Of a stretch of 62,734 nt of DNA, positions 7,264 through 62,136 are shown in pieces (positions within the stretch are counted from its first letter, which is position 1; the number at the start of each line of letters is the position of its first letter). The translations under genes were made by a program, and so were the position numbers. The stretch comes from Alphaproteobacteria bacterium (GTDB lineage Bacteria > Pseudomonadota > Alphaproteobacteria > RF32 > CAG-239), in the NCBI GenBank assembly GCA_017470585.1, contig JAFUYI010000002.1:1-62734 (forward strand). Direction: 5' to 3'. Under the pieces are notes generated by a model. It was not told where the DNA came from. It was given only the letters and a program-made list of their open reading frames with translations, and ran no database searches.

Positions 7264-7740
7264 CTAAAGATTATAGTTTATGGTTATTACAGAACTGTAA
7301 TCTCCGCTTGTTGGAACGGTATCGTAATCTAACATATCATACACAAACTCGAAAGTATTATCAGAAATGTGACCAAACCAAGCATTATTTAAAGTAATGC
7401 CTCCGAATTTAAAAACTGAAGGGGTTACAGTAAAACAGGGGCTATCGGAAACTTTGCATGAATCAGCAACATTGGCAGTAAATCTTCCCCATTGTGTACC
7501 GGTTATGGAAGTTATACCATAAGCGCATTTATAACTGGTGCTTTCGGAAATACAAGCTCCACCTTCGGTATTAGACGGGTCAATAGTTATTGTACCGACA
7601 TTATAATCTCTGGTTACTGTTAAACTAACATCGTGGGCGATTGTGGCTGTTACGGTCATTGTCGACGAATTGCCCGCGTAAGCGCAGTATGAACCTATGG
7701 ACACCGCGGCAACACCAAGTAATAAAATATATTTTTTCAT
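7264..7740 (-). CDS. Secreted DUF4402/Csu-pilin-like protein, copy 1 (type A N-terminus)
   Basis: Signal peptide, TMTVTATIAHDVSLTVT, FTANV, C-terminal GDYSSVITINY strand; family assignment by motif resemblance only. Confidence 0.7.
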   Translation of the reverse strand: MKKYILLLGVAAVSIGSYCAYAGNSSTMTVTATIAHDVSLTVTRDYNVGTITIDPSNTEGGACISESTSYKCAYGITSITGTQWGRFTANVADSCKVSDSPCFTVTPSVFKFGGITLNNAWFGHISDNTFEFVYDMLDYDTVPTSGDYSSVITINYNL

Positions 7741-7988
7741 CTTAAAAACTTCCTTTTTTTAACGTTAAAAAAACCACCTGTTGGGCTTTAGCCCGCGAGG
7801 TGGCTGGAAGTTAACGACTGTACTATAGAACAGTGTTGGGTATTCTTTATATTCCCCAACCTTCCAACCATAAAGGCTGAAAGTATTTTTTACGTTTTTC
7901 TTAAACGCTATAGTAGAGGTCGTTACACCTCAAAGTGACTTTTCATTCACTTCAAGTCTAAACTAGCATAAAAAAATCTGATTGTCAA
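7741..7988 (-). ncRNA. Promoter plus structured leader (attenuator-like), copy 1
   Basis: TTGACA-N17-TAGTTT; pairings TAACGAC/GTCGTTA, TACTATAG/CTATAGTA, TGGTTGGAAG/CTTCCAGCCA; terminator CCACC/GGTGG plus T tract. Confidence 0.85.
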
Positions 7989-10193: not shown

Positions 10194-10748
10194 TTATTCG
10201 GGGTCATAAGAAATGGTCAATACTCCGGTTTTAACACCGGTGGTAAGGGTTGATATATCAGTTATAAAACAGTTTGGTGATACGGCAAAAGTATTGTTTA
10301 TTAAATGTTGTATATAAAATTGACAGGAATTGCCTTTTCCGAATAATCCGTTAATCCAATGATTGTTATTTCCGATAGCACTCAAACCACCGCAGGATAG
10401 ACTTCTTGAATTACAGGATTCGGGGTCTGGTATGTTGGCATTAAAGGTTCCGAAAGTTATATTGTCGGCTTTAACAACCGTATTTCCGCTTATTCCTTGT
10501 GCTGTTCCGTCACCGTGATATGTCCACCATGAATCAGCTGTTGCATTGGGATTGATATAAATTGTTCCCATATCTATATCAGAGGTAACATCTAAATTTG
10601 CATCCGCGCTCGCGGTTTTGGAATTGCCTAAAACCACTTCGTGGTCGATGGTGGTCGAAATTTCAAAATTTTCGGATACTGCGGTTGCATTATAAGCAGT
10701 GTATGAAATGCCTGCTAATAGAAGAATTAAAAAAGTTTTGTTTATCAT
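10194..10748 (-). CDS. Secreted pilin-like protein, copy 2 (type B N-terminus)
   Basis: MINKTFLILLL...AVSENFEISTTIDHE, FNANIP..CN...SCGGL, LTISY; start moved to 10748. Confidence 0.7.
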   Translation of the reverse strand: MINKTFLILLLAGISYTAYNATAVSENFEISTTIDHEVVLGNSKTASADANLDVTSDIDMGTIYINPNATADSWWTYHGDGTAQGISGNTVVKADNITFGTFNANIPDPESCNSRSLSCGGLSAIGNNNHWINGLFGKGNSCQFYIQHLINNTFAVSPNCFITDISTLTTGVKTGVLTISYDPE

Positions 10749-10997
10749 CTGACTTCCCTTTATGGTTTTCTGTCTTAAAAAAACCACCTTTCGGGCATTT
10801 GCCCTAGAGGTGGCTGGAAGTTAGCTACTGCAGTATAAAACAGTGTCGGGTATTCTTTATATTTCCCAACCTTCCAACCATAAAGGCTGAAAGCACTTTT
10901 ACGCAAGTGTATAACGTTATACCGGAGGTAGCTACACCTCAAAACAGGATTTCCCTGCTTCGATTTTTACCCTAGCATAAAAAATTCTTATTGTCAA
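10749..10997 (-). ncRNA. Promoter plus structured leader, copy 2
   Basis: TTGACA promoter; TAGCTAC/GTAGCTA and CGGTATAA/TTATACTG (G-U) pairings; same antiterminator and terminator. Confidence 0.85.
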
Positions 10998-13384: not shown

Positions 13385-13461
13385 TGGTCGGGACTATAGG
13401 ATTCGAACCTACGACATCTTGCTCCCAAAGCAAGCGCTCTACCAGACTGAGCTAAGTCCCG
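13385..13461 (-). tRNA. tRNA-Pro(UGG)
   Basis: CGGGACT acceptor, TAGCTCAG D-arm, anticodon loop TTTGGGA, GTTCGAATC T-loop, encoded CCA. Confidence 0.96.
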
Positions 13462-13589: not shown

Positions 13590-14126
13590 TTAGCCGCCGG
13601 CAGAATAACTGATGTTAAGTGTGCTAGGGTGCTCGCCAACGGTAACTTGAGATATATCAACTATTCCACAGCCGGAAGGAAACACATTAAAGCTGTTAGA
13701 ACTTCCGCTGTATTTAATCTTAAAAATACAGAAACTGCTATCATTTCCGCCAAAGAAATCATCAATCCAATTTTCGTTATTTCCGTTAACACTCAATCCT
13801 CCACAGGAATCAGATGCTGTATTGCAAGCGGAAGGATTGGGGATATTAGCCGTAAAAGTGCCGACCGTGGCATTTGGGGCGGAGACAATCGCTCCTTGAT
13901 CATCTAAACTTATCACCCCCGAATCGCTGTAAGTAAAATATGTATCCTCTCCGGTATAAGCAGGATTTATGGTAATTGTGCCAAAGTCTATATCTCGAGT
14001 TACAGTCAAGCTCACGTCGTGGGCAATCGTTGCTGTTACGGTCATTGTGGCAGTATTTCCGGCATAAGCGGCGTAACTGCCAAGGGCAACTGCGGCAATG
14101 CCGAGCATTAAAATATAATTTTTCAT
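13590..14126 (-). CDS. Secreted pilin-like protein, copy 3 (type A)
   Basis: ATMTVTATIAHDVSLTVTRDIDFGTITINP; CN..SDSCGGL; LNISY. Confidence 0.72.
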   Translation of the reverse strand: MKNYILMLGIAAVALGSYAAYAGNTATMTVTATIAHDVSLTVTRDIDFGTITINPAYTGEDTYFTYSDSGVISLDDQGAIVSAPNATVGTFTANIPNPSACNTASDSCGGLSVNGNNENWIDDFFGGNDSSFCIFKIKYSGSSNSFNVFPSGCGIVDISQVTVGEHPSTLNISYSAGG

Positions 14127-14395
14127 AAGTCTTACTTCCTTTTTTTATTAAAGTTATAAAAAAGAAACCACCCGTTGGAGCTGTATGCTCCGCGAGGTGG
14201 TTGGAAGTTGAGAACTGTTGTATAGTACAGTGTTGGGTATTTGGTCAAACCTTATTTCCCTACCTTCCAACCATAATATACGGCTAGAAGCAATTTTATG
14301 TCTTGATGGGACACTATACAAGAGGTTCTCACACCTCAAAGCAGAATTTCCCCTGCTTCAGTTTTCAAGCTAGCACAAAAATTTCTTATTGTCAA
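14127..14395 (-). ncRNA. Promoter plus structured leader, copy 3
   Basis: TTGACA-N17-TAGCTT; TGAGAAC/GTTCTCA and TTGTATAGT/ACTATACAA pairings; terminator. Confidence 0.85.
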
Positions 14396-18340: not shown

Positions 18341-18886
18341 TCAGCTCGGTGTATAGCTGATGGTCAAAGTTCCGTTATGCCTGCCGGGGGTAACTTGAGA
18401 TATATCTTCTATGTAGCATTGATCCGGAAAGACCGTAAAATTGTTTCCACTTCCGCTATATTTTATTTGGAAACCACATAAATTATCAATAGGATGAGAA
18501 CCATTGCCGAATAAATAATAGATCTCATTACCGGAATTTCCTGTTACACTCAATCCTCCGCAGGAATCACTGTGAGTATTGCAATCTTGCGGATTGGAAA
18601 TATTGGCAGTAAAAATACCTACTGTGGCATTATCTGCCGAAACAATCGCTCTTTTATTATGGTAACTGAATACCCCGGATTCATTATATTGCCACTCTGT
18701 ATCCCATTCGTCATAAGCCGGGTTGATGGTGATTGTGCCAAGGTTTATATCTTGAGTTACACTCAAGCTCACATCGTGGGCGATTGTTGCTGTTACGGTC
18801 ATTGTGGCGGAATTGCCGGCGTAGGCGCAATAAGAACCTATGGACACTGCGGCAACGCCGAGCATTAAAATATATTTATTCATCAT
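18341..18886 (-). CDS. Secreted pilin-like protein, copy 4 (type A)
   Basis: MMNKYILMLGVAAV, SATMTVTATIAHDVSL, GTLTISY; start trimmed to 18886. Confidence 0.72.
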   Translation of the reverse strand: MMNKYILMLGVAAVSIGSYCAYAGNSATMTVTATIAHDVSLSVTQDINLGTITINPAYDEWDTEWQYNESGVFSYHNKRAIVSADNATVGIFTANISNPQDCNTHSDSCGGLSVTGNSGNEIYYLFGNGSHPIDNLCGFQIKYSGSGNNFTVFPDQCYIEDISQVTPGRHNGTLTISYTPS

Positions 18887-19155
18887 AAAAACTTCCTTCT
18901 TTAGTTTCTTTATAACTTTAATAAAAGAAACCACCTTTTGGGTTATTCACCCTAGAGGTGGTCGGAAGCTAGAAACTGACACTTGAATCAGTGCAAAGTA
19001 TTTGATGTATCTCTTATTCCTTTGCCTTCCGACCATTATAGTAGGAAGAATTTTTACGTTTTTCTTAAAAACGTCAAGTGAGAGGCTTCTAGACCTCAAA
19101 GCGGCTTTTCGCTCACTTCAATTCCTACCCTAGCATATAAAATCTTTTATGTAAA
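18887..19155 (-). ncRNA. Promoter plus structured leader, copy 4
   Basis: TTTACA-N17-TAGGGT; CTAGAA/TTCTAG and CACTTGA/TCAAGTG; TGGTCGGAAG/CTTCCGACCA (compensatory change). Confidence 0.85.
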
Positions 19156-20269: not shown

Positions 20270-20527
20270 TTGATTTTAGGAAAAATGTATGTTACGTTAG
20301 CCTTGAAACGGGTGAAAAGCCGTTTTGAGGTGTGAGAACCTCTTCCATGATGTCCGAAAAAGACATAAAATTTGCTTCTAACCGTACTATGGTTGGAAGG
20401 TCGGGAAATATAAAGAATACCCGGCACTATTTCATGGAATAGTTCTCAACTTCCAACCACCTCGCGGGCTAAAGCCCAACAGGTGGTTTCTTTTTTATAA
20501 CTTTAATAAAAAAAGGAAGTTTTTAAG
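20270..20527 (+). ncRNA. Promoter plus structured leader, copy 5
   Basis: TTGATT-N17-TACGTT with TG; TGAGAAC/GTTCTCA, TTCCATGA/TCATGGAA, TGGTTGGAAG/CTTCCAACCA; AACCACCT/AGGTGGTT plus T tract. Confidence 0.87.
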
Positions 20528-21025
20528 ATGAATAAATATATTTTAATGCTCGGTGTTGCCGCAGTTTCAATAGGCTCGTATTGCGCAATGGCCTCCAACT
20601 CCGCCACAATGCAAGTTAGTGCAACGATTGCTCACGATGTGAGCTTGACTGTTACCCACGCTTTTGAAGGTGGTACCATTACCATTGATCCGAGTCAAAG
20701 TTATGGAATTTTCACCATCGATAGTGATGGAAGTGTAAGAACATCGCAAGGTGTAACCTCCGTAACCGGTGCATCTCGGGGAACTTTTACCGCCAATGTT
20801 CCGGATTCGTGCAAGGAGAGTGATCAGTTTGATGACGGATCGCACCCTTGTTTTTCAACGAATGACCAAATCTCTTTTGGGGGATTTCGGTTTGAAGAGC
20901 CTTACATTTATTATGTTTCCGGCAATAACTTTCAAGTAGGCTTTAATAATATGTTTTACGATGACACCGTTCCCACTCCGGGGGATTACAGCCAAAACAT
21001 AACCATAACCTATACGGCACCGTAA
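20528..21025 (+). CDS. Secreted pilin-like protein, copy 5 (type A)
   Basis: SATMQVSATIAHDVSL, FTANVPDSCK, GDYSQNITITY. Confidence 0.72.
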   Translation: MNKYILMLGVAAVSIGSYCAMASNSATMQVSATIAHDVSLTVTHAFEGGTITIDPSQSYGIFTIDSDGSVRTSQGVTSVTGASRGTFTANVPDSCKESDQFDDGSHPCFSTNDQISFGGFRFEEPYIYYVSGNNFQVGFNNMFYDDTVPTPGDYSQNITITYTAP

Positions 21026-24512: not shown

Positions 24513-24815
24513 CTAATAAGGGATTCGCCTCACGCAGCTGTTTCCGTCATAGCTGTAATTGGCAACTCTTCCGTTGATGATTGTAAAACGGGCATTACAC
24601 CACCTTGTGGAACAATGTCCCTCAAAGCAGCTGAATTTTTTATCTTCATATTGCAGAAAACGTTGTGCCTCGGAGTTATATACGGAAGTAGGATTGCCGA
24701 ATCTTCTTATAAGTTCCGATTCGCTTATTCCGACAGCCGAAGCCAGTCTTTCTTCATAATAATTGACACAGCCGCTGCAAAATATCACTAAAAGCAAAAA
24801 AATATATTTTTTCAT
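24513..24815 (-). CDS. Small lipoprotein under the cassette leader
   Basis: Lipobox CSGC; GISESELIRRFGNP...C-ARF; not homologous to the pilin-like family past the signal peptide. Confidence 0.75.
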   Translation of the reverse strand: MKKYIFLLLVIFCSGCVNYYEERLASAVGISESELIRRFGNPTSVYNSEAQRFLQYEDKKFSCFEGHCSTRWCNARFTIINGRVANYSYDGNSCVRRIPY

Positions 24816-25083
24816 CTCTTAAACTTCCCTTTTTTAAGTTTTCTATTGATAAAAAAGAAAACCACCCGCGGGGATATATCCTGCGAGGTGGCCGGAAGTT
24901 TGTGACTGACTGTTAGCTCAGTGCGAAGTATTTGGGCAAGCCTTATTCCTTCGCCTTCCGACCATATCGGCAGGAAGATTTTTACGTTTTCTTTGGAAAC
25001 GCTAACAGGAGAGGTCACAACACCCCGAAGCGACCTTTAACTCGCTCTGAAATTACCCTACCATAAAAAAATTTTTATGTCAA
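24816..25083 (-). ncRNA. Promoter plus structured leader preceding the lipoprotein gene
   Basis: TTGACA promoter; TTGTGAC/GTCACAA, CTGTTAGC/GCTAACAG, TGGTCGGAAG/CTTCCGGCCA; terminator. Confidence 0.83.
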
Positions 25084-25231: not shown

Positions 25232-25726
25232 CTAAAGATAATAGTTTATGGTTATTACAGAACTGTAATCTCCGCTTGTTGGGACAGTATTTTCGTCGTA
25301 ACCTATACTGTCATACCAAAATTCAAAAGTATTGCCTGAAACATAGTAGAGATTATAATTACCTAAAGTAATACCTCCGAAATTAAGACTTGTCGGTGTC
25401 GCATTGAAACAATCATAAACATCAGCAGGATCTTTGCATGAATCAGCAACATTGGCAGTAAATCTTCCCCATTGTGTACCGGTTATGGAGATTATGCCGT
25501 CGCCTAAACAATAACCATAACCGCTCCCTTTTGTAACGCAGCTCCCACCTTCGGTATTAGACGGGTCAATAGTTATTGTACCGACATTATAATCTCTGGT
25601 TACTGTTAAACTAACATCGTGTGCGATTGTGGCGGTAACGGTCATTGTCGCCGAATTGCCCGCGTAGGCGCAGTATGAACCTATGTACACCGCGGCAACG
25701 CCGAGCATTAAAATATACTTTTTCAT
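25232..25726 (-). CDS. Secreted pilin-like protein, copy 6 (close paralog of copy 1)
   Basis: Shares RDYNVGTITIDPSNTEGG, ITGTQWGRFTANVADSCK and VPTSGDYSSVITINY with copy 1. Confidence 0.72.
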   Translation of the reverse strand: MKKYILMLGVAAVYIGSYCAYAGNSATMTVTATIAHDVSLTVTRDYNVGTITIDPSNTEGGSCVTKGSGYGYCLGDGIISITGTQWGRFTANVADSCKDPADVYDCFNATPTSLNFGGITLGNYNLYYVSGNTFEFWYDSIGYDENTVPTSGDYSSVITINYYL

Positions 25727-25985
25727 CTTAAAAACTTCCTTTTTTTATTAACGTTATAAAAAACCACCTGTTGGGCTTTAGCCCGCGAGGTGGTTGGAAG
25801 TTCAGAACTGACAGATAGATCAGTGCGAAGTATTTGGCTGAACCTTATTTCTTCACCTTCCAACCGTTATAGCAGGAAGAATTTTTACGTTTTCTTAAAA
25901 ACGCTATCTGAGAGGTTCTGACACCTCAAAACGAGATTTTCCTCGCTTCGATTTTTACCCTATCATAAAAATTTTTTTATGTCAA
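25727..25985 (-). ncRNA. Promoter plus structured leader, copy 6
   Basis: TTGACA-N17-TAGGGT; TCAGAAC/GTTCTGA and CAGATAG/CTATCTG. Confidence 0.85.
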
Positions 25986-29149: not shown

Positions 29150-29414
29150 AGTTTAACGTCCTTTTCATATTAAAATTTAAGATGAAAAGCTGCGCTCGTG
29201 AAACTCAAGAGGCGCAGCCGGATGTTGATCACTATAACGTATAATAGTCCCGCATATTAAGCTTGGCAGCATATTCTGCAGGCATCCGGCTGCATAATAA
29301 AGCCAGACTGCCGATTTATGTTTCGGCACAAACAAAACGTTAGAGGCGATCAAACCCCAAAGCGAGAATCACTCGCTCCAAAATTAAGTTAACATATCGT
29401 TTGATTTGAATCAA
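29150..29414 (-). ncRNA. Highly diverged structured leader, copy 7
   Basis: TTGATT-N17-TAACTT; GCAGCCGGATG/CATCCGGCTGC replaces the antiterminator, GCTGCGC/GCGCAGC the terminator; TTGATC/GATCAA and TAACGT/ACGTTA pairings. Confidence 0.82.
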
Positions 29415-34146: not shown

Positions 34147-34665
34147 TTACGAGGCAGTGTAAAAGATGGTAATGGTTTGGGTGTGTTCACCGGTGGTGAC
34201 TCCTGACATATCATTTATATCACATGCAGAAGGAAATACTTTAAAGTTATTTTCGCTTCCGGTGTATCGAATAGTCATTTCGCAATGATTGTTCGTACCG
34301 GCTCCTCCAAAGAAGCCGGCAATAACCTCACCGCTAGTTGCTTGAATGTCTAATCCATCTCTAGAAGATGGATTAGGAATATTGGCAGTAAAAGTACCAA
34401 CTGTGGCATTATCTGCCGAAACAATCGCTCCTTGATTCTCAAAACTGATTGCACCTGATTCGTCATAAGTCCAAATTGTACTACTTCCCGTATAAGCCGG
34501 ATTGATGGTGATAGTGCCAAGATCCACATCTTGGGTAACATTTAGGCTCACATCGTGAGCGATTGTGGCGGTAACGGTCATTGTGGCAGAGTTAGCGGCA
34601 TAGGCGGCATAACTGCCAAGAGCAACTCCCGCAATGCCGAGCATTAAAATATAATTTTTCATCAT
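34147..34665 (-). CDS. Secreted pilin-like protein, copy 8 (type A)
   Basis: SATMTVTATIAHDVSL, DLGTITINP, FTANIPNP, TITIFY. Confidence 0.72.
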   Translation of the reverse strand: MMKNYILMLGIAGVALGSYAAYAANSATMTVTATIAHDVSLNVTQDVDLGTITINPAYTGSSTIWTYDESGAISFENQGAIVSADNATVGTFTANIPNPSSRDGLDIQATSGEVIAGFFGGAGTNNHCEMTIRYTGSENNFKVFPSACDINDMSGVTTGEHTQTITIFYTAS

Positions 34666-34927
34666 AAAAACTTCCTTTTTTTATTAAAGTTATAAAAAAG
34701 AAACCACCTGTTGGAGAGGCACTCCGCGAGGTGGTTGGAAGTTAGCAACTGATTAGAGGATCAGTGCAGAGTATTTGACTTATCTCTTATTCCTCTGCCT
34801 TCCAACCATTATAGCAGGAAGAATTTTTACGTTTTTCTTAAAAACGCCTCTAAAGAGGTTGCTACACCTCAAAGCAGAATTTCCCTGCTTCGTTTTTCAC
34901 CCTAGCATAAAAAATTACGCTTGTCAA
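34666..34927 (-). ncRNA. Promoter plus structured leader, copy 8
   Basis: TTGACA-N17-TAGGGT; TAGCAAC/GTTGCTA and TTAGAGG/CCTCTAA. Confidence 0.85.
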
Positions 34928-34940
34928 AGCAAAATTTGCT

Positions 34941-35193
34941 TTGACAATAAGATTTTTTTGTGCTAGCTTAAATTTGAAGTGAATGAAGATTCACTTTGAG
35001 GTTTGAAGACCTCTCTAATGTCGTTTATGCTAAAACGTAATTTAGTTTGTCCGCCTTTTTGGTTGGAAGTCTGCAAAATATAAAGAATATGCGGAACTAT
35101 TACATTAGATAGTCTTCAACTTCCAGCCACCTCGCGGGTGAAAAACCCAACAGGTGGTTTTTTTTATGACGTTAATAAAAAAAGGAAGTTTAG
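34941..35193 (+). ncRNA. Promoter plus structured leader, copy 9 (reference copy)
   Basis: TTGACA(34941)-N17-TAGCTT(34964) with TG; TTGAAGAC/GTCTTCAA, TCTAATGT/ACATTAGA, TGGTTGGAAG/CTTCCAGCCA; terminator 35127-35165. Confidence 0.88.
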
Positions 35194-35682
35194 ATGATGA
35201 AAAACTATATTTTAATGCTTGGCGTTGCAAGCGTTGCTCTTTGCAGTTACGCCGCAATGGCTTCCAACTCTGCCACAATGCAGGTTAGCGCAACCATCAA
35301 TCACGATGCAAGCTTGAGCGTGAGCAGAGATTTAAACATCGGTACCATTACTATTGATCCAAGTCAAACATACGGTATTTTCGGCTTTTCCTGTGATGGT
35401 ATTCCGGGCTGGCCGCCGCAAGGACCCGGAGGAGTAAAGGCTATTGATGATATACAGATCGGACTTTTGAGTGCCAATGTTCCCGATCTTGCGGTAGAAC
35501 ACGGTTTTTTATATATAGAAACACCAAATATAACATTGGGAGCCTTAAATGTTGATTTGTATATAGATAAAATCTCCGGCAATAATTACTGTGTTGATGC
35601 GGGTGCTGTTGAATACGACGGAAGTGTTCCGAGCGAAGGAACTTATGAAGCAGATATAACCATACGTTATGATGCGGAATAA
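35194..35682 (+). CDS. Secreted pilin-like protein, copy 9 (type A)
   Basis: SATMQVSATINHDASL, DLNIGTITIDP, GTYEADITIRY. Confidence 0.72.
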   Translation: MMKNYILMLGVASVALCSYAAMASNSATMQVSATINHDASLSVSRDLNIGTITIDPSQTYGIFGFSCDGIPGWPPQGPGGVKAIDDIQIGLLSANVPDLAVEHGFLYIETPNITLGALNVDLYIDKISGNNYCVDAGAVEYDGSVPSEGTYEADITIRYDAE

Positions 35683-40717: not shown

Positions 40718-40794
40718 GGCGGGGTAGCTCAGTTGGTTAGAGCAGTGGAATCATAATCCATTTGTCGTTGGTTCGAATCCGACCCTCGCTACCA
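40718..40794 (+). tRNA. tRNA-Met(CAU), probably elongator
   Basis: GGCGGGG acceptor, TAGCTCAGTTGGTTAGAGC D-arm, GTGGA-ATCATAA-TCCAT anticodon arm, GTTCGAATC, CCA. Confidence 0.93.
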
Positions 40795-40840: not shown

Positions 40841-41338
40841 TTACGGTGCCGTGTATGTTATGGTTATGTTTTGGCTGTAATCTCCTGGAGTGGGAACGGT
40901 GTCATAATATGATATAAAATCATACTGAAAATCAAACAGATTCTCCTCGGTGTGCCTTATATAACCTTCCATAAGGCTTAATCCTCCTATATATATTCCC
41001 CCCGGGCTTACCGTAAAACATGGATGATGACTATTTAGTTCATCAACTTTGCACGAATCGGGGACATTGGCGGTAAAAGATCCCAGCCTATCACCGCTTA
41101 TAGATATTATTCCTCCGGTTTTAGAGATAATCATTCCGGTTTCTGTGTCCATAATAATATTTCCTTCTGTTTGAGCGGGATCAATGGTAATCGTGCCAAG
41201 ATCCCAATCATAAGCTGTCAAGCTAACATCGTGGGCTATTGTGGCGGTAACGGTCATTGTGGCGGAATTGGAGGCCATTGCGGCATAACTGCCAAGAGCA
41301 ACGCCTGCAACACCGAGCATTAAAATATATTTATTCAT
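40841..41338 (-). CDS. Secreted pilin-like protein, copy 10 (paralog of copy 5)
   Basis: DTVPTPGDYSQNITITYTAP identical to copy 5. Confidence 0.72.
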   Translation of the reverse strand: MNKYILMLGVAGVALGSYAAMASNSATMTVTATIAHDVSLTAYDWDLGTITIDPAQTEGNIIMDTETGMIISKTGGIISISGDRLGSFTANVPDSCKVDELNSHHPCFTVSPGGIYIGGLSLMEGYIRHTEENLFDFQYDFISYYDTVPTPGDYSQNITITYTAP

Positions 41339-41583
41339 CTTAATTTATTAACGTCATAAAAAAGAAACCACCTGTTGGGTTTTTCACCCGCGAGGTGGTC
41401 GGAAGTTGATAGCTGTTACTCGAAACAGTGTGCAGTATTTGGTATTCCTACACCTTCCGACCATAATTCGGTCAGAAGCAATTTTATGTCTTGATAGGAC
41501 ATCGAGTACGAGGCTATCACACCTCAAAACGAATTTCTCTTCGTTTCAAGTGGCACCATAGCATATTTTTTTATGCAAATCAA
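41339..41583 (-). ncRNA. Promoter plus structured leader, copy 10
   Basis: TTGATT-N17-TATGGT; TGATAGC/GCTATCA and TACTCGA/TCGAGTA; internal hairpin shortened. Confidence 0.83.
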
Positions 41584-46563: not shown

Positions 46564-47088
46564 TTACTCCCAATCCGAGAGGTAAGTAACAGTAATTGAT
46601 GATTGATATGTACCGGTGCTGGGAGGGGATGAATAAAACAGACCGCCGGTACAGACCGCGTAATTATTATCGGCGATTTTAGAAAAAATAAAACACGCGC
46701 TAAATCCTCCCATATCTATGAGTCCTGAACACTCTGCTTCACCAAGACTCAAACGCCACCATTCTTCCCCAAGATCAACGTTTGTACTGAATAGCCCCAT
46801 ACTTTCATTGCGGACTTCAACTATTCCTCCGCGTGTTTCGAGAGTATCATTGCAATCTAATCTATATAAAGAACCACTGTTAAGGTTTTTGTTTATAACA
46901 ATCGTTCCTATATTTATATCTCTGGTTACGTCAAAATCAACATCCATGCTTGCTGTTCTAAAACTGCCTAAAGTTATTTCGTGGTCAATAGTGGTTGAAA
47001 TTGCAAAATTTTCGGATACTGCCGCGGCGTTATAGGCGGTATACGAGATGCCTGTTAATAGAAGAATTAAAAAAGTTTTGTTTGTCAT
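46564..47088 (-). CDS. Secreted pilin-like protein, copy 11 (type B)
   Basis: MTNKTFLILLL, AVSENFAISTTIDHEITLG, GTYQSSITVTY. Confidence 0.7.
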   Translation of the reverse strand: MTNKTFLILLLTGISYTAYNAAAVSENFAISTTIDHEITLGSFRTASMDVDFDVTRDINIGTIVINKNLNSGSLYRLDCNDTLETRGGIVEVRNESMGLFSTNVDLGEEWWRLSLGEAECSGLIDMGGFSACFIFSKIADNNYAVCTGGLFYSSPPSTGTYQSSITVTYLSDWE

Positions 47089-47361
47089 CGTGCTTCCCTT
47101 TACGGTTTCTTTATTTACACTAAAAAAAGAAAACCACCTGTTGACTCTTGAGAGCCGCGAGGTGGCTGGAAGCGGAAAACTGTACTATAGAACAGTGCAA
47201 AGTATTTGAGTTGCCTCTTATTCCTTTACCTTCCAGCCATTGTTATAGCAGGAAGAATTTTTACGTTTTTCTTAAAAACGCTATAGTAGAGGCTTTCCGA
47301 CCTCAAAACGGAATTTTCTCCGTTTCAGATTCAAACTAGCACAAAAATTTTTTGTTGTCAA
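47089..47361 (-). ncRNA. Promoter plus structured leader, copy 11
   Basis: TTGACA-N17-TAGTTT; CGGAAA/TTTCCG, TACTATAG/CTATAGTA, TGGCTGGAAG/CTTCCAGCCA. Confidence 0.85.
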
Positions 47362-51512: not shown

Positions 51513-52034
51513 TTATTGAATGTATTCTATAACAATATTTTGGCCAAACTCTCCCGATTGCGGTATGGCAGTATTATCCCATGAAATGGAATTATACTGA
51601 AATTTGAATTTATTGTCCGAATCATAAATTATATAGGGACGCTCCATTATTGTATTTCCAAGTTGTATGTTAGGAGCCCTAAAGCAAGGATGATCAATGC
51701 CTGAATCAGCATTGAATGCTATACCATCAACCTTGCACCAATCGAGGACATTGGCGGTAAAAGTACCGATGGAAAATCCGCTGTATGATGTTATGTTGCC
51801 GGTTTTAGATGACATTCCCGAACCATCAGTTGCAAATTCTATTACTCCACCTTGTGACCAATCAGCACCGGGGTTGACGGTAATTGATCCCATATTTAAG
51901 TTGTGAGTTACGGTTAAACTGACATCATGAGTTACCGTCACGGAAACATTCATTGTATCGGAGTTGGCAGCGTACGCGGCATAAGAGCCTAGAACGACTC
52001 CGGCAACAGCGGTCAATAAAATATATTTATTCAT
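51513..52034 (-). CDS. Secreted pilin-like protein, copy 12 (diverged type A)
   Basis: MNKYILL, SDTMNVSVTVTHDVSLTVT, FTANV, HPCF; start trimmed to 52034. Confidence 0.7.
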   Translation of the reverse strand: MNKYILLTAVAGVVLGSYAAYAANSDTMNVSVTVTHDVSLTVTHNLNMGSITVNPGADWSQGGVIEFATDGSGMSSKTGNITSYSGFSIGTFTANVLDWCKVDGIAFNADSGIDHPCFRAPNIQLGNTIMERPYIIYDSDNKFKFQYNSISWDNTAIPQSGEFGQNIVIEYIQ

Positions 52035-52286
52035 ATCTAAACTTCCTTTTTTTATTAAAGTTATAAAAAACCACCTGTTGGGTAAAATCCCGCGAGGTGG
52101 TCGGAAGTTAGCAACTATCATTCAAATAGTGCAGAGTATTCTTTATATTTCCCTGCCTTCCAACCAAAAAAGATCGGATATACCAAATAACGTTTCGGTT
52201 AAAACGTGAATGAGAGGTTGCTACACCTCAAAACGGCTTTTTATTCGTTTCAAAGTCACCATAGCATACTTTTTATTCCGAATCAA
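52035..52286 (-). ncRNA. Promoter plus structured leader, copy 12
   Basis: TTGATT-N17-TATGGT; TAGCAAC/GTTGCTA and TCATTCA/TGAATGA. Confidence 0.85.
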
Positions 52287-52629: not shown

Positions 52630-52677
52630 ATCAAACTTTAATTAAGCAACCATTTGAAAGAAGGAAAACAAAGCAAA

Positions 52678-54732
52678 ATGTCCAACCATGACTACGAGGC
52701 ATCAAAGGTAAAAGATAACGTTCAGATTACCAGCGTTACCAAAAGAGACGGAACCTTGGCTCCCTTTGACAGCGATAAAATTTTTAATGCGATTCGCAAG
52801 GCCGGAGAGGCAACTTCCGAGTTCGGCGAACAGGAATGCTATCTTTTGACCGGACAGGTTTTGAAAGTTTTGGCGCATAAATTCAGCGAATCCCTGCCGT
52901 CAATTGAAAATATTCAGGATGTTGTGGAACAGGTTTTGATTTCCGCCAACTATTTTGCCACCGCCAAGTCTTATATTTTATATCGTGATCAGCGTTCACG
53001 CGCAAGAGCCGATAAAAAAGTTGTGGTTGATGTTGAAAGTTCAATCAACGAATATCTGGAAAGACTTGATTGGCGCGTTAATGCCAATGCCAACCAAGGA
53101 TATTCCAACGGCGGCTTAATCTTGAACGTATCGGGCAAAGTTACCGCCAATTATTGGTTGAGCCATGTTTATCCCGCCAATGTCGGTGAAGCACACCGCA
53201 ACGGCGATATTCATATTCACGATTTGGATATGCTGGCGGCATATTGCGCCGGATGGTCGTTGAAAAATCTGCTTCACGAAGGATTTAACGGAGTTCCCGG
53301 CAAAGCCGAAGCCGGTCCTGCCAAACATTTATCCGCCGCAGTCGGACAGATGGTTAACTTTATGGGAACACTCCAAAACGAATGGGCGGGCGCACAGGCT
53401 TTTTCTTCGGTTGACACCTATTTGGCACCTTACATCCGCAAGGATAATCTTTCTTATGAACAGGTTGAACAGTGTTTTCAAGAGTTGATTTATAACTTGA
53501 ATGTTCCCTCGCGCTGGGGTTCGCAGACACCGTTTACCAACTTTACTTTCGATTGGGTATGCCCCGATGATTTGAAGGATAAGCACCCGTTGATTGCAGG
53601 TGAGGAGCAGCCCTTTACCTATGGCGATTTGAAACCGGAAATGGATATGATTAACAAGGCTTATATCACGGTAATGATGAAAGGTGATATTAAAGGCCGT
53701 CCGTTTACTTTCCCGATTCCCACCTATAATATGACACCCGATTTCCCGTGGGAAGACGAAAACACCGAGTTACTATTCGAAATGACCGCCAAATACGGAC
53801 TTCCTTATTTCCAAAACTTTATCAACTCCGTTTTGAAACCGGGACAGATTCGTTCAATGTGCTGCCGTTTGCAACTCGATTTGCGTGAGCTTTTAGCCAA
53901 AGGCAACGGACTTTTCGGTTCGGCGGAACAGACCGGTTCCATCGGTGTTGTTACCTTTAACTGCGCACGTTTGGGATATGTTTATAAAGATAATGAAACA
54001 GGTCTTTTTGCCCGTGTTGATGAGTTGATGAATATTGCCCGCACCTCGCTTGAGATTAAACGCAAGCTCATCCAACGTTTAATTGATAACGGACTGTTTC
54101 CGTTTACCAAACGTTATTTGGGAACGCTTCGCAACCACTTTTCCACCATCGGCGTTAACGGTATTAACGAGATGATTGCCAATTATACCTCCGGCAAGCA
54201 CGATATTACCGACGGGTGGGGTATTGCTTTTGCCACCAAATTTTTGGATTATATCCGCGCGAAGCTTGTAAAAATTCAGGAAGAAACCGGACATATGTAT
54301 AATTTGGAGGCGACTCCCGCCGAGAGTGCGACCTATCGTTTTGCCCGTGAGGATAAAAAACGTTATCCCGGAATTATTCAGGCCGGAACGGTTGAGAATC
54401 CGTATTATACCAACTCTTCACAGCTTCCGGTCAGCTTTACCGATGATCCTTTCGAGGCTTTGGAACTGCAAGCCGATTTGCAGTCCAAATATACCGGCGG
54501 CACTGTTTTGCACCTTTATATGGGACAGCGTATATCTTCGGCAAAAGTTTGCCGCGATATTGTCAAAAAGGTTTTGACCAATTATCGCTTGCCCTATATT
54601 ACCATTACTCCGACTTTTTCCGTTTGCCCCAAGCACGGCTATATTTCCGGAGAACATAAATACTGCCCGATTTGCGATGAGGAAATTTTGGCGGAAAAAA
54701 GAAAAATTGCCGCTTCGGAAGAAGTTGCATAA
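52678..54732 (+). CDS. nrdD: Class III anaerobic ribonucleotide reductase, large part with ATP cone
   Basis: VTKRDG ATP cone, IHIHDL, RSMCCRL, EATPAE, YTGGTV, CPKHGY..CPIC; lacks the terminal glycyl-radical motif. Confidence 0.93.
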   Translation: MSNHDYEASKVKDNVQITSVTKRDGTLAPFDSDKIFNAIRKAGEATSEFGEQECYLLTGQVLKVLAHKFSESLPSIENIQDVVEQVLISANYFATAKSYILYRDQRSRARADKKVVVDVESSINEYLERLDWRVNANANQGYSNGGLILNVSGKVTANYWLSHVYPANVGEAHRNGDIHIHDLDMLAAYCAGWSLKNLLHEGFNGVPGKAEAGPAKHLSAAVGQMVNFMGTLQNEWAGAQAFSSVDTYLAPYIRKDNLSYEQVEQCFQELIYNLNVPSRWGSQTPFTNFTFDWVCPDDLKDKHPLIAGEEQPFTYGDLKPEMDMINKAYITVMMKGDIKGRPFTFPIPTYNMTPDFPWEDENTELLFEMTAKYGLPYFQNFINSVLKPGQIRSMCCRLQLDLRELLAKGNGLFGSAEQTGSIGVVTFNCARLGYVYKDNETGLFARVDELMNIARTSLEIKRKLIQRLIDNGLFPFTKRYLGTLRNHFSTIGVNGINEMIANYTSGKHDITDGWGIAFATKFLDYIRAKLVKIQEETGHMYNLEATPAESATYRFAREDKKRYPGIIQAGTVENPYYTNSSQLPVSFTDDPFEALELQADLQSKYTGGTVLHLYMGQRISSAKVCRDIVKKVLTNYRLPYITITPTFSVCPKHGYISGEHKYCPICDEEILAEKRKIAASEEVA

Positions 54733-57072: not shown

Positions 57073-59787
57073 ATGGACGCAAAACAAGCCGCCGCCAAAG
57101 TGACTTCCGGCAACTATACCGCAGAGGATTTTGCGGTATTATATGCCGCGTTGAAAGGCAAGGCCGAATATGCCGATGCTTTCCGTGCTTTGCGCACGAG
57201 AATGCTGAAAGAATATGCCAAAGGGCAGACTTTGGAAGTAAGCCAAGCTCGCCCGCAGAAAACAAATCAGCGGCAAGCAGAGCCCGCCGCACAGCCGCGT
57301 GTCCAGGAGAAAAAGGATATTGTGGTTGATGAGGCACCGCGCACTGCAAGAGTTGATGAAAATCAACTGCATAACAATGTTGAGCAGTGGAAAATCAAAC
57401 GCCGCCAAGATATTATGCAGTGGGTTGCCAAGAATCAATCGCACGAAATCAAGGAAATCAAAGCTGTTGAAAGCGGTTTGAATGCCGAGTTCAAAGACGG
57501 AACAACTTTGAACTTCGTGAAAGAAGATCATGTTTCGGTCAAAACTCCGAAACAGCCGGAACCCAAGAACTTTGATGTTATCGTTGCGTTAGCCAAACAG
57601 GAAAACCGCAAGGTTAAACTCGGCGAAAATATGAGTGAGGAATTTCGTGCGGCTTTGATTGAAGCCTGCGCCAAGGCCGATGTTCAAATCAGCAATCTGA
57701 CTTTGGAAGATTTGGATAAATATATGAGTTTTGTCGCCGAAAAACAGCCTCAAGCTCCGCAGCAAACCGAAGAACACAGCCTAAATGCTGCCGTCAATAC
57801 CGGACACACTTTGAAAGCGTTGAGTGCCGAACAGTTGAAGAGATTGCAGGATAACGGTTTTGATGTGAACGAAACATCCGTTGTTGATGATCAGCAGTGG
57901 AATGCAATGCAGACCGTTTTGTCCTCGCAGTCCCAAGAAAGAAAAGATAACGGAGTGGGCGAAGTTGTTAGTGCTGTTGCCGCCCATGCTGCCTCCCGTG
58001 AAGCTCAAGCCGCAGAACAAAAAGTTGATACTCCGGCACAGGAGAGCGTTGTTGCCGCTGTCACCCAAGAACAGGAAAGCGTTGATACTCCCGCTCAAGT
58101 TGCAGAGCCTGCTTCTTCGGTTGCCGAACCTGCACCGCAAGTTCAGGAACCCGCACAGCAGACCGCCGGCGAAGCCAGAGTTCAAGAGGTAAAACAAAAA
58201 GTTGATACTTCTGCTCAAGATACTTCGGCACAAGATACTCCTGCTGATGTTCAAACTCCGGTTAATGAAGGCGCGGGAGAGGCACAGCCTATTCCTCCGT
58301 CATATTTCGGATCTGCGGATTTTAATGATGTTCTCTTGGAAGATGAGGATCCCAACAAGGAAGATGCCGCACGGCAGACCGCAAAAGAAGAAAAGCAAGA
58401 TACTGCCCAAGGCAAGGATAGCGGTGTTATTGTAATTCCCGCTATGCAGGGCGGAGAGGCCGATCCTCAAGAACAGGCTGCCGCAGATGCTGCCCGCAAA
58501 CAGGAGGAAGATGCCGCAAGCCAAGCCAAAGATAATAAAAAGGATAAGAAAAAAGGCTCTATTTTGTCGCGAATCGGTAATTGGTTCGGCAAGATGGGCA
58601 AAAAAACCAAAAAAGTTCTTGTCGGCGCGGGTTTGGTTTTAGTGGCATTTGTTGCCGGACGTTCCTGCATGGGGTGCCACAATACCGGCAATCCCGGCGA
58701 TGATAAAAAAGATCCGCGCAAAAACATTGAATTGGTAACCGATACTTTGGCAACGGACAGCATTGCCGATCGTCCTGATACTCTTGATTTAGGGCGCGAT
58801 GTTGTTATTGCTCCGCGTGTATGGGATGAGAGTATGACAATTACCAAGGCGCAGTTTGATAATATGTATAATATTGTCGGCAAGCATGACAAAGATCATG
58901 TTATGTGGGACAGAATGTATATGAACTCGAAGGAATTGGCTCCCAAGTTCGGTTATACATGGGATGAGTTGATGTTCAAGACCATGAGAATGGCGGCTTG
59001 GACAAACGCTTTGAACGGCAAAGCCTGCGATACTCATAACGCTAAATGGGCTTATACCTATAGCGGTGCTTTCGGACACATTGTCGGTCCCACAATGGAA
59101 GTTATTAAATGCGGCGGTGAACTTGATGCCTCGCTTTTGGCAAAAGCCAAGAAGACTCTTGATGCAGTCGGCAAAGACGGACGAATCAATGTTGTGGCTT
59201 TGGATGCGGTTGTTCCCGGAACATCGAGATACAATGACCATGATGCACAAGGCTGGATTATCGGTCATAACCGCAATGTTATGATTGATATGAACGAAGA
59301 TTGCGGACGCAATGCCCAAGTCGGATTCCGTATCGGCGGTAAACTTCCGGAAAAAGTGGTGCAGAAAGTGGTTGAGGAAGAAGTTGACACCGTTCCTTCG
59401 CCGGTTATTCATAGAATTGAGAAAATAGAAATTCCTCCGCTACAGCCGATTCAACCTGTTACTCCGGATTTGCAGATACCGAATATTCATGTTGATATTC
59501 CGCAGCCTGCTCCTCAAGCCAATGTTGCCGTCGGTGCGACCGCTAACCTGACCTCAACTCCCGGAGCTCAAGGTGTTAAGAAAGGACAAGAGGTTTTGGC
59601 TAACGGAAGTGATAGAGGCTTGACCAAACGTCAAAGAAAAGTATTGCTTCGCCAAGCAAAAGACCTTTATGAAGCCGACAAGCTAACCAAAGAAGAGTAT
59701 CAACAGACTGTCAGGGAAATAAACGGGACTAAAGGTAATCAGGTTGCGCCAGCAACTGCCTCCCGCGGCAATTCCTATGGCGGCTAA
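57073..59787 (+). CDS. Large single-pass membrane protein with Q/A/P/E-rich linker
   Basis: AGGAG RBS, 904 aa, one TM (VLVGAGLVLVAFVAG), VDTPAQ repeats, terminator downstream. Confidence 0.78.
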   Translation: MDAKQAAAKVTSGNYTAEDFAVLYAALKGKAEYADAFRALRTRMLKEYAKGQTLEVSQARPQKTNQRQAEPAAQPRVQEKKDIVVDEAPRTARVDENQLHNNVEQWKIKRRQDIMQWVAKNQSHEIKEIKAVESGLNAEFKDGTTLNFVKEDHVSVKTPKQPEPKNFDVIVALAKQENRKVKLGENMSEEFRAALIEACAKADVQISNLTLEDLDKYMSFVAEKQPQAPQQTEEHSLNAAVNTGHTLKALSAEQLKRLQDNGFDVNETSVVDDQQWNAMQTVLSSQSQERKDNGVGEVVSAVAAHAASREAQAAEQKVDTPAQESVVAAVTQEQESVDTPAQVAEPASSVAEPAPQVQEPAQQTAGEARVQEVKQKVDTSAQDTSAQDTPADVQTPVNEGAGEAQPIPPSYFGSADFNDVLLEDEDPNKEDAARQTAKEEKQDTAQGKDSGVIVIPAMQGGEADPQEQAAADAARKQEEDAASQAKDNKKDKKKGSILSRIGNWFGKMGKKTKKVLVGAGLVLVAFVAGRSCMGCHNTGNPGDDKKDPRKNIELVTDTLATDSIADRPDTLDLGRDVVIAPRVWDESMTITKAQFDNMYNIVGKHDKDHVMWDRMYMNSKELAPKFGYTWDELMFKTMRMAAWTNALNGKACDTHNAKWAYTYSGAFGHIVGPTMEVIKCGGELDASLLAKAKKTLDAVGKDGRINVVALDAVVPGTSRYNDHDAQGWIIGHNRNVMIDMNEDCGRNAQVGFRIGGKLPEKVVQKVVEEEVDTVPSPVIHRIEKIEIPPLQPIQPVTPDLQIPNIHVDIPQPAPQANVAVGATANLTSTPGAQGVKKGQEVLANGSDRGLTKRQRKVLLRQAKDLYEADKLTKEEYQQTVREINGTKGNQVAPATASRGNSYGG

Positions 59788-59867: not shown

Positions 59868-60437
59868 TTAACTCGGAGTGTAAGTGATAGTCAATGATGC
59901 TGTTCTGGTTGCGGGAATAATGTCGGATACAGTGTCCAGATAGCAATGAGAAAGAAACACTTTAAAGAGATTTCCTTCCCCGCTGTATTTTATGTAAGAA
60001 TGGCACCATTTTTCACCACCACTTCCGAAAGGATATACAGCACTACGATAACCTCCAAAAACTTCCAACCCTCCGCAAGAATTGGTTGCCGTATTGCAAG
60101 CTTCGGGATTTGCAATATTAGCGGTAAAAAAGCCGACCGATTGATTATCAGCTCTGATGATCGCTCCTTGATTGTTGTAACCTATTATTCCCGAATCAGT
60201 ATATCCCCAAGTTGTAGGGTCTCCGCTATATATCGGATTGATATAGATTGTGCCTAAATTTATATCACCTTTTACATCCAAATTGGCATCCGCGCTTGCG
60301 GCTCTGAAATTGCCTAAAGTTATTTCGTGGTCGATGGTGGTGGATATTGCAAAGTTTTCGGAAACAGCTGCAGCATTATAGGCAGTATAAGATAAGCCTA
60401 ATAATAAAAGAGTTAAAAAAGTTTTGTTTGTTGTCAT
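59868..60437 (-). CDS. Secreted pilin-like protein, copy 13 (type B)
   Basis: AVSENFAISTTIDHEITLG, FTANIANPEACN..NSCGGL, LTITYTPS. Confidence 0.7.
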   Translation of the reverse strand: MTTNKTFLTLLLLGLSYTAYNAAAVSENFAISTTIDHEITLGNFRAASADANLDVKGDINLGTIYINPIYSGDPTTWGYTDSGIIGYNNQGAIIRADNQSVGFFTANIANPEACNTATNSCGGLEVFGGYRSAVYPFGSGGEKWCHSYIKYSGEGNLFKVFLSHCYLDTVSDIIPATRTASLTITYTPS

Positions 60438-60707
60438 CTAAACTTCCTTTTATGGTTTCTTTATTTGCACTAAAAAAAGAAAACCACCTTTTGGGCATTC
60501 AAACCCGCGAGGTGGCTGGAAGTTTCCAACTGACTAGTAGATCAGTGTGAAGTATTTGGATTATGCCTTATTCCTCCACCTTCCAGCCATAATAGCAGGA
60601 AAAATTTTACGTTTTTCTAAAAACGCTACTAGAGAGGTTGGAACACCTCAAAACAAGATTTTCCTTGTTTCGATTTTTAACCTAACATAAAAAATTGCGC
60701 TTGTAAA
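60438..60707 (-). ncRNA. Promoter plus structured leader, copy 13
   Basis: TTTACA-N17-TAGGTT; TTCCAAC/GTTGGAA and CTAGTAG/CTACTAG. Confidence 0.85.
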
Positions 60708-61872: not shown

Positions 61873-62136
61873 TTTACATTACTGATTTTTTATGTTAGGG
61901 TAATTTCGAAGTGAATGAAAAGTCACTTTGAGGTCTGATAGCCTCGTAAGTACCGTTTGTATCAAGACGTAGTTTGATATGTCCGACTTTTATGGTTGGA
62001 AGGTAAGGAAATAAGATTTATCAAATACCTTACACTATTGTACTTAATAGTTATCAGCTTCCAACCACCTCGTCTGCTTGTCGGGGTGGTTTCTTTTATT
62101 AAAGTTATAAAGAAACTAAAAAAAGGAAGTTTGAAT
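61873..62136 (+). ncRNA. Promoter plus structured leader, copy 14
   Basis: TTTACA-N17-TAGGGT; CTGATAGC/GTTATCAG (G-U), TAAGTAC/GTACTTA, TGGTTGGAAG/CTTCCAACCA; terminator. Confidence 0.86.

Follow-up and report, generated by a model that had tools for sequence, protein, structure and literature searches.

Leader copies in the window

The window, a stretch of 62,734 nucleotides (nt) of an Alphaproteobacteria bacterium (contig JAFUYI010000002.1 of assembly GCA_017470585.1, here contig C30), carries at 34941-35193 on the forward strand a structured leader that runs from a promoter to the ribosome-binding site (RBS) of a gene for a secreted protein. The leader, which is probably a transcription attenuator of a new type, is present in many copies in the window and throughout the genome (1,554,495 bp in 102 contigs, 94% complete). 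An initial annotation, made from the sequence alone, had described it as an unrecognised RNA with two pseudoknots and a terminator/antiterminator, situated in front of a dispersed surface-protein family. Every helix named in that annotation was found at its coordinates in the 34941-35193 copy; and both pseudoknots, here called PK-A and PK-B, are real. Three parts are new: hairpin P4b, a hairpin between a linker segment (region 1) and the 5′ strand of the long helix P4, and an optional third pseudoknot, PK-C. The parts of this copy are as follows, with the promoter, RBS and start codon read from the sequence; percentages and both-side changes (pairs altered on both sides) refer to the window copies and to leaders from related genomes (relatives).

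34941-34969, forward: promoter; -35 at 34941-34946, 17-nt spacer, TG at 34961-34962, -10 at 34964-34969
34977-34996, forward: P1 hairpin; both-side changes in 4/6 pairs in the window and 6/6 in relatives
34998-35013, forward: P2 hairpin; near-invariant 5-bp stem, with 100% of cells paired in the window and 96% in relatives; the 6-nt loop, 35003-35008, serves as the PK-A 5′ strand
35015-35021, forward: PK-B 5′ strand; partner 35102-35108 in the P5 loop; 7/7 pairs change on both sides
35022-35037, forward: P3 hairpin; covaries; in many copies its loop has a partner in the linker (PK-C)
35050-35055, forward: region 1, linker segment; local hairpin with the P4 5′ strand (anti-antiterminator)
35060-35069, forward: region 2, 5′ strand of P4; partner 35120-35129; P4 cells paired at 99.3% in the window and 98.2% in relatives, with both-side changes in 5/10 and 8/10 pairs, respectively
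35070-35095, forward: P4b hairpin, 35070-35075 with 35090-35095; conserved A-rich loop; 6/6 pairs change on both sides
35096-35113, forward: P5 hairpin; covaries; 8-nt loop 35101-35108 bears the PK-B 3′ strand
35114-35119, forward: PK-A 3′ strand, directly between P5 and P4; pairs with the P2 loop
35120-35129, forward: region 3, P4 3′ strand; the terminator stem starts within it, sharing its final 3 nt (35127-35129)
35127-35165, forward: intrinsic terminator; stem 35127-35132 with 35152-35157, upper stem, T8 at 35158-35165
35182-35196, forward: RBS at 35182-35189 and start codon ATG at 35194-35196
35194-35682, forward: downstream gene for a 162-aa secreted protein, a member of the expanded family described below

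P5, the PK-A 3′ strand and the P4 3′ strand are contiguous without a spare base, and P4b directly follows the P4 5′ strand; thus P4, P4b, P5 and PK-A meet in a fully paired junction. The two pseudoknots interlock, the P2 loop pairing with the six bases after P5 (PK-A) and the seven bases after P2 pairing with the P5 loop (PK-B). PK-C is placed tentatively in this copy, at about 35030-35034 with 35041-35045, and in other copies the P4b loop holds a small additional hairpin.

The predicted transcription start lies at about 34976-34977. The promoter assigned to the leader is borne out in 226 unique near-full copies of the genome, in which the -35 box reads TT(G/T)ACA, 97% have the TG, and conservation in the -10 box is 98-100% at the T, A and final T; in relatives a promoter-like -35/-10 pair ends about 7 nt before P1. 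A simple consensus promoter scan did not list the leader promoters, and its promoter-like count equalled the shuffle expectation; we think that they were missed owing to a -10 type unlike the consensus scanned. The promoter spacers contain runs of 5-7 T between -35 and -10 (e.g. 34953-34959), the length of which varies among copies and could permit slipped-strand phase variation. At 34921-34947 lies a 27-nt palindrome common to two divergent copies, with both -35 boxes back to back inside it.

Copies were searched for with nhmmer over the whole genome, using a profile built from the window copies. In the window exactly the 15 full copies and 1 partial copy reported in the initial annotation were returned, at the same places. 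Apart from the copy above (start codon at 35194, forward), these are listed below; each start position is that of the start codon next to the copy.

2-63, reverse: partial leader copy, truncated by the contig end (nhmmer profile)
7765-7957, reverse: leader copy; start 7740, gene 7264-7740
10775-10966, reverse: leader copy; start 10748, gene 10194-10748
14159-14364, reverse: leader copy; start 14126, gene 13590-14126
18922-19124, reverse: leader copy; start 18886, gene 18341-18886
20301-20495, forward: leader copy; start 20528, gene 20528-21025
24853-25052, reverse: leader copy; start 24815, preceding a gene from outside the family, 24513-24815, a 100-aa lipoprotein-like open reading frame (ORF)
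25759-25954, reverse: leader copy; start 25726, gene 25232-25726
29181-29383, reverse: leader copy of a divergent subfamily; start 29149; letters of P4 and terminator fully different, still complementary and still overlapping
34695-34896, reverse: leader copy that adjoins and diverges from the 34941 copy; start 34665, gene 34147-34665
41359-41552, reverse: leader copy; start 41338, gene 40841-41338
47125-47330, reverse: leader copy; start 47088, gene 46564-47088
52066-52255, reverse: leader copy; start 52034, gene 51513-52034
60475-60676, reverse: leader copy; start 60437, gene 59868-60437
61904-62098, forward: leader copy; start 62135

A 21-nt core pattern with at most 3 mismatches gave 7 matches, against 0 in 100 shuffles. 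Genome-wide, 274 leader hits were obtained, 244 of them near full length (>200 profile positions), a density of about one copy per 6 kb. To our knowledge, about 250 copies in 1.55 Mb is without parallel for a cis-regulatory RNA. Many contigs start or stop within leader copies (e.g. C48:17-296, C33:77-363, C97:69-346 and C11:21-301, as well as 2-63 in the window), so the assembly seems to break there and the true copy number may exceed the count.

Covariation and competing pairings

An unsupervised scan of all column pairs was made on the 226 copies (mean pairwise identity 66%) with a G-test corrected by the average product. It found 34 reciprocal-best pairs with more than 90% standard pairing, all of which fall within P1, PK-A, PK-B, P3, P4, P4b, P5 or the terminator. 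The top-scoring helices were the two pseudoknots, every pair of which showed all four Watson-Crick types at 96-100% pairing (99-100% for the pairs of PK-A). In a MAFFT alignment of the 15 window copies, which is independent of the model, 56 pairs including both pseudoknots were examined: 95.9% of cells were paired, compared with 79.3% after shuffling and 37.7-47.1% after sliding, both-side changes occurred in 37/56 pairs, and 0 of 500 shuffles reached any of these measures. The relatives' set consisted of 56 leaders (55 distinct) from the order and from one genome of another family (two tandem copies, L049). Here 92.7% of cells were paired, compared with 78.5% shuffled and 37-45% slid, with both-side changes in 43/56 pairs, in an alignment that was fitted to the model and so favours the structure. 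PK-B reached only 68-72% in this alignment because its strands fall in unaligned insert columns. Covariation is strong both in paralogues and across 20 genera.

The pairing was further examined by comparing each native partner strand with a swapped one. The native strand was better in 226/226 own copies and 55/55 relatives for PK-A, and in 225/226 and 54/55, respectively, for PK-B.

The helices are those of an RNA. As claimed at the outset for the sense strand, G-U pairs are commoner than A-C pairs, with 5.0% versus 1.4% of paired cells in the genome's own copies and 6.6% versus 1.2% in relatives, which argues that the sense strand is what folds. This bears on the alternative that the leader is a DNA-level repeat, a substrate for recombination or phase variation that shuffles surface proteins, with the structure as a by-product of inverted repeats. 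Leader and coding histories are decoupled (see below), suggestive of recombination among copies, and a conserved signal peptide with a conserved leader resembles the 5′ ends of variable gene families. However, a G-U frequency 3.5 to 5.5 times that of A-C means strand-specific pairing, compensatory changes keep 6- and 7-bp helices across 85-115 nt, and the same RNA stands before single-copy unrelated genes in 20 genera. The covariation in window and relatives, together with the G-U excess, has already largely refuted the DNA-level explanation, which we consider very improbable.

The sequences of the pseudoknots vary greatly. Among the 226 copies there are 223 different combinations of PK-A and PK-B sequence. 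Where leaders are otherwise nearly alike (5-10% different; 14 pairs), their pseudoknot columns still diverge at 0.55-0.59 per site and remain paired; the coding sequences behind these pairs have reached saturation at fourfold sites (mean 0.53 over the 55 closest pairs). Among pairs with 75-85% amino-acid identity (fourfold 0.32), leaders differ by 0.34, like any pair, and pseudoknots are saturated at 0.60. Leader and coding similarity are therefore decoupled, which indicates that the two have evolved separately, with recombination or conversion among copies as the probable cause. Positive selection for copy-specific pseudoknots was considered and set aside: with saturated fourfold sites and decoupled histories there is no clean neutral yardstick, so that change faster than neutral is not demonstrated. 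It is safe to say that the pseudoknot helices are constrained only to pair, with the remaining leader strongly conserved.

The overlap of terminator and long helix noted in the initial annotation is present: 3 nt are common to P4 and the terminator stem. The shared columns covary with both of their partners (GCG in 218 copies versus ATA in 6; TAT in 197 versus CGC in 8). The P4 duplex was better with its native strand in 211/226 own copies and 55/55 relatives. The hairpin of region 1 with region 2 was predicted in every copy sampled and in 20/20 relatives; its native duplex averaged -11.7 kcal/mol versus -9.5 kcal/mol when swapped, and was the better one in 199/226 own copies and in 54/55 relatives. 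The divergent subfamily (window copy 29181-29383 and five others), other genera and other families have other letters in P4, region 1 and terminator, with the three-way complementarity and an overlap of 3-5 nt kept. RNAalifold, which is blind to pseudoknots, returned unaided the terminator state, that is the region 1:2 hairpin plus the full terminator, and drew PK-A and PK-B as a single long helix. Together, the dual covariation, the region 1:2 hairpin, the kept overlap and the RNAalifold state point to a four-strand attenuator.

Two other pairings were not retained. That of the P2 5′ arm with the terminator 5′ arm was dropped as the terminator sequences of other genera differ; RNAalifold pairs the P2 5′ arm with the first half of region 3, which shows no both-side change and is only possible. 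Sequestration of the RBS by the P4 3′ strand found no support, since the divergent subfamily has changed both motifs at the same position in a non-complementary way.

The terminator hairpin has a mean energy of -14.2 kcal/mol, and in 223/226 copies at least 5 T are found in the next 8 nt. In relatives a terminator was counted in 37/56 leaders, an undercount caused by folds that sometimes pair the T run with downstream A's. A median of 39 nt separates the end of the stem from the start codon, so a second promoter would have little space there. In nested energies, which exclude pseudoknot and tertiary contributions, the terminator state lies below the state with P4 forced in 223/224 copies, by a mean of 11.4 kcal/mol; since the terminator state is favoured, we infer that the default is off.

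Distribution and downstream genes

Relatives were searched with a covariance model (R1) built from the window copies, and 16-40 candidates were scored per genome. In a first search (E ≤ 0.001), 39/61 genomes matched, including 34/36 of the same family. Over the order, 142/151 genomes matched and all 20 of its 20 genera were represented; among other families of the class there were 13 matches in 149 genomes (E ≤ 1e-5), the matching genomes being 0.9-2.5 Mb in size. The number of copies per relative genome ranged from a few to at least 25, these counts being lower bounds.

The genes behind the leaders of relatives, sampled at 19 loci and then at 56 leaders, are diverse. By reading of the proteins, not by Pfam, they comprise type IV pilin-like proteins with a prepilin N-terminus, several kinds of lipoprotein, outer-membrane barrels, helix-turn-helix regulators, small membrane proteins and a glycosyltransferase-like gene. 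Such contexts argue against a ligand tied to one pathway.

In the genome of the window, by contrast, the leader precedes almost exclusively one protein family. Of the 260 leader hits extending to the profile's 3′ end, 255 have an ORF of at least 40 aa, starting with ATG, within 70 nt downstream, and 254 of these 255 ORFs belong to a single secreted family of about 150-195 aa (typically about 170 aa), as judged with a family profile built from the same downstream proteins. The sole exception is the window copy 24853-25052, whose ORF (24513-24815, 100 aa) has a lipoprotein-like N-terminus. The genome holds 285 stop-to-stop ORFs matching the family; leaders and family together are estimated to make up about 14% of it (244 × about 280 nt plus 285 ORFs × about 520 nt).

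The family members have a conserved N-terminal helix resembling a signal peptide and a beta-rich body (structure model with a mean predicted local distance difference test score, pLDDT, of 78.7). The best solved-structure hits by Foldseek were FimA pilins, and they were weak (E 7e-4, template modelling (TM) score 0.34-0.40). Pfam found no family in 5 members at E up to 1. The usher family PF00577 had 0 hits in the genome, which speaks against chaperone-usher pilins. A feature-based Atlas hit, in a cluster with 21% of members carrying DUF4402, is a lead only: the Pfam model of DUF4402 (PF14352) was not matched in the 5 members scanned, and a full-text literature search for DUF4402 found nothing. 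'Secreted, possibly pilin-like' is therefore a fair label; 'surface protein' is unproven.

The family was found in 0 of 28 genomes of the same genus and thus appears to be a species-specific expansion. The tie between leader and dispersed surface-protein family drawn in the initial annotation therefore does not hold in general, since across the order the RNA stands in front of varied genes, most of them envelope-related. It is both older and more widespread than the protein family: an order-wide leader has been taken over by a species-specific family.

The regular position of these genes also bears on the possibility that the function resides in the terminated RNA of about 190 nt, which would be a stable structured small RNA (sRNA) acting in trans or as a decoy, with gene expression as incidental read-through. 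With its strong promoter, compact fold and seemingly efficient terminator, the leader would produce a short RNA in abundance, the terminator state is the nested minimum in 223/224 copies, and in one distant genome tandem copies lack an ORF within 150 nt. Against this, an RBS and an ORF follow at a fixed short distance after 255/260 copies, covariation maintains the antiterminator P4, which a simple terminated sRNA would not need, and the variable segments are internally paired, with no exposed conserved seed evident. We regard an sRNA as the main product as quite unlikely.

The tandem leaders of the distant genome (G060, of another family) lie at L049:1216-1388 and L049:1501-1678 on the reverse strand and are without P3. 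In the 150 nt that follow them, no ORF of 45 aa or longer begins; the two may represent either free-standing RNAs or leaders arranged in tandem.

The organism itself belongs to a group of gut and rumen bacteria for which we know of no cultured representative or genetics; the literature found on RF32/Alphaproteobacteria/CAG-239 consisted of microbiome surveys only. The relatives of the RadA-like protein of the window are gut and rumen metagenome-assembled genomes. Its closest relative (L051, 86% identity) is titled Bacteroidaceae, and the next matches are titled Alphaproteobacteria or similar; that bin is probably mislabelled. Two other genes of the window were looked at. The ORF at 52654-54732 (forward) is the anaerobic ribonucleotide reductase NrdD with an ATP-cone (E 4e-175), which fits an anaerobic gut lifestyle. 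The 904-aa ORF at 57073-59787 (forward) had no Pfam family, and a peptide-pattern search of the genome collection found no relative of it.

Proposed transcription attenuation and possible signals

Rfam 15 (4227 models) was scanned over the whole window at gathering thresholds, and only two tRNAs were found:

13388-13461, reverse: tRNA (Rfam)
40718-40791, forward: tRNA (Rfam)

A permissive scan of 34900-35200 gave 15 matches, all below threshold, the best with 24 bits against a cut-off of 49. The Gut-1 motif (RF01706), described in PMC2864571, is absent from the Rfam matches of both scans. A description of the leader RNA was not found in the full-text literature searched; unnamed motif candidates in supplementary lists could include it. 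The lack of a match to a known family, as first reported, agrees with both Rfam scans.

From these data we propose that the leader is a new structured cis-regulatory transcription attenuator, with a probability of about 0.6. The leader would begin a few bases after its own promoter, and its fold would decide whether polymerase stops at the intrinsic terminator, which lies some 40 nt ahead of the start codon. The competition would be among four strands: region 1 (linker), region 2 (P4 5′ strand), region 3 (P4 3′ strand) and region 4 (terminator 3′ arm). In the off state, regions 1:2 and 3:4 would pair, giving a full terminator and a stop of transcription. In the on state, regions 2:3 would form P4 and close the junction of P4b, P5 and PK-A, while PK-A and PK-B would lock P2 to P5; the terminator would lose its basal 3-4 pairs at the U tract and the polymerase would read into the gene. 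With off as the default, a factor that stabilises the pseudoknotted fold, be it a small molecule or ion, a protein or the kinetics of transcription, would turn the gene on. The data show the helices, both alternative pairings, their overlap and the conservation across genera; the direction of the switch, its response to a signal and the nature of that signal are inferred. Within this reading, a small molecule or an ion as the signal is possible, a protein less likely and a purely kinetic or physical cause least likely. Candidate sites of contact or docking are the near-invariant P2 stem, the conserved A-rich P4b loop and, in regions 1-3, the invariant cores; part of this invariance is explained by each strand having two partners.

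The idea of a new riboswitch or attenuator class, put forward in the initial annotation, stands as regards a structured sense-strand RNA, interlocked pseudoknots, the overlap and the missing Rfam match, but not as regards specificity to a surface-protein family. The general features of a riboswitch are present, with a covarying, structured, aptamer-like fold and a terminator that competes with a helix of that fold.

The same module might instead be a constitutive 5′ untranslated region that sets stability, translation or a fixed low read-through, its alternative pairings being folding intermediates and its spread due to duplication or promoter capture. The cassette from -35 to RBS is conserved, portable and placed before unrelated genes in other genomes, it has been amplified along with a protein family not found in the 28 same-genus genomes, no effector has been identified, and the core pseudoknot sequences are unconstrained, all as such a module would have it. 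But three-way covariation keeps both mutually exclusive pairings, the anti-antiterminator hairpin, conserved across genera and other families, is hard to explain without switching, and a terminator at about 250 constitutive loci would be wasteful. A constitutive module is therefore unlikely, in our judgement.

Several observations weigh against regulated attenuation. Neither a ligand nor a protein partner was identified, and the downstream genes share no metabolic theme of the kind usual for a riboswitch ligand. The core pseudoknot helices are free in sequence, which is unusual for a ligand pocket. The nested preference of about 11 kcal/mol for the terminator means that the P4 state needs substantial extra stabilisation. 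A simple consensus terminator scan did not list the leader terminators, which we think is due to the internal loop in the stem. In the swap test for PK-C the native strand was better in only 160/226 own copies and 41/54 relatives, and this partial support makes PK-C optional. Alignments A4 and A5, fitted to the model structure, lean towards it; and paralogues and related genomes are non-independent samples, so that the shuffle controls overstate significance. Lastly, the sequencing runs containing the locus were 4 DNA gut-metagenome runs from one study and none of RNA; the contigs from them were short, many derived from paralogues, and stacked on conserved blocks.

Among known systems, terminator-type riboswitches with pseudoknotted aptamers include the c-di-GMP-II (cyclic di-GMP), ZTP and fluoride classes. 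Like these, the leader is a covarying 5′ leader whose fold-closing helix overlaps a terminator, and it occurs in several copies before different genes. It differs in having no Rfam match, three pseudoknots (PK-A and PK-B free in sequence) and an extra anti-antiterminator hairpin, in preceding genes for envelope proteins and regulators rather than one pathway, and in its approximately 250 copies in 1.55 Mb. Classical attenuators use trp-type leader peptides, or, in PyrR and T-box systems, an anti-antiterminator, an antiterminator and a terminator. The four segments of the leader, with 1:2 and 3:4 against 2:3, and the stripping of the terminator base by 2:3 are alike, whereas the antiterminator of the leader closes a pseudoknotted domain of about 150 nt, and there is no T-box, PyrR or other Rfam match. 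The T-box model itself gave no match. No conserved leader ORF was visible by inspection of the alignments, with no formal test of ORF conservation; the sole recurrent ATG lies in the P4 5′ strand and is missing in the 34941 copy and in most relatives.

In some bacteria, GEMM-type cyclic-dinucleotide regulons comprise numerous copies in a single genome, placed before genes for pilins, outer-membrane proteins and surface proteins. The leader is likewise multi-copy before pilin-like, outer-membrane and lipoprotein genes, but it has no covariance-model match, and c-di-GMP signalling is at best minimal here: of two GGDEF matches in the genome, one exceeded the cut-off (33.3 bits) and the other fell short of it, and EAL gave 0 hits in the 94% complete assembly, HD-GYP and PilZ not having been searched. 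One GGDEF and no EAL weaken c-di-GMP as the effector, which is possible but weakly grounded. CsrA as the effector is weakened likewise, with 0 hits to PF02599 in the same assembly. In mycoplasma vsp/vlp-type families, conserved 5′ regions precede variable surface proteins. These resemble the present case in that promoter, leader and signal-peptide region are conserved before a variable mature protein in many dispersed copies; in contrast, the conserved part here is an RNA structure kept by compensatory change, which predates the family and serves other genes elsewhere.

The envelope-centred set of genes suggests a global signal for the attenuator. As a more specific and rather doubtful proposal, the leader would be a new riboswitch class for a small molecule or ion that acts as a global signal for the envelope programme of this uncultured order of gut Alphaproteobacteria, and would in this one species have been co-opted about 250 times to gate a new pilin-like repertoire, off by default, with a subset of copies reading through at a given time and expression varying as a result. 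The copy-specific pseudoknots may have been kept different so that hundreds of co-transcribed leaders can fold without pairing with one another.

If attenuation is confirmed, the leader would represent a widespread, uncatalogued class of regulatory RNA with three pseudoknots, a fully paired junction and a four-strand expression platform. Its approximately 250 natural, independently drifting copies in one genome, and hundreds more in the order, would be a resource for the study of structure, co-transcriptional folding and selection on two states. Identifying the effector would show by what signal these organisms control their pilins, lipoproteins and outer-membrane proteins, and the expanded family would be a case of regulatory capture, a new gene family having appropriated an old module.

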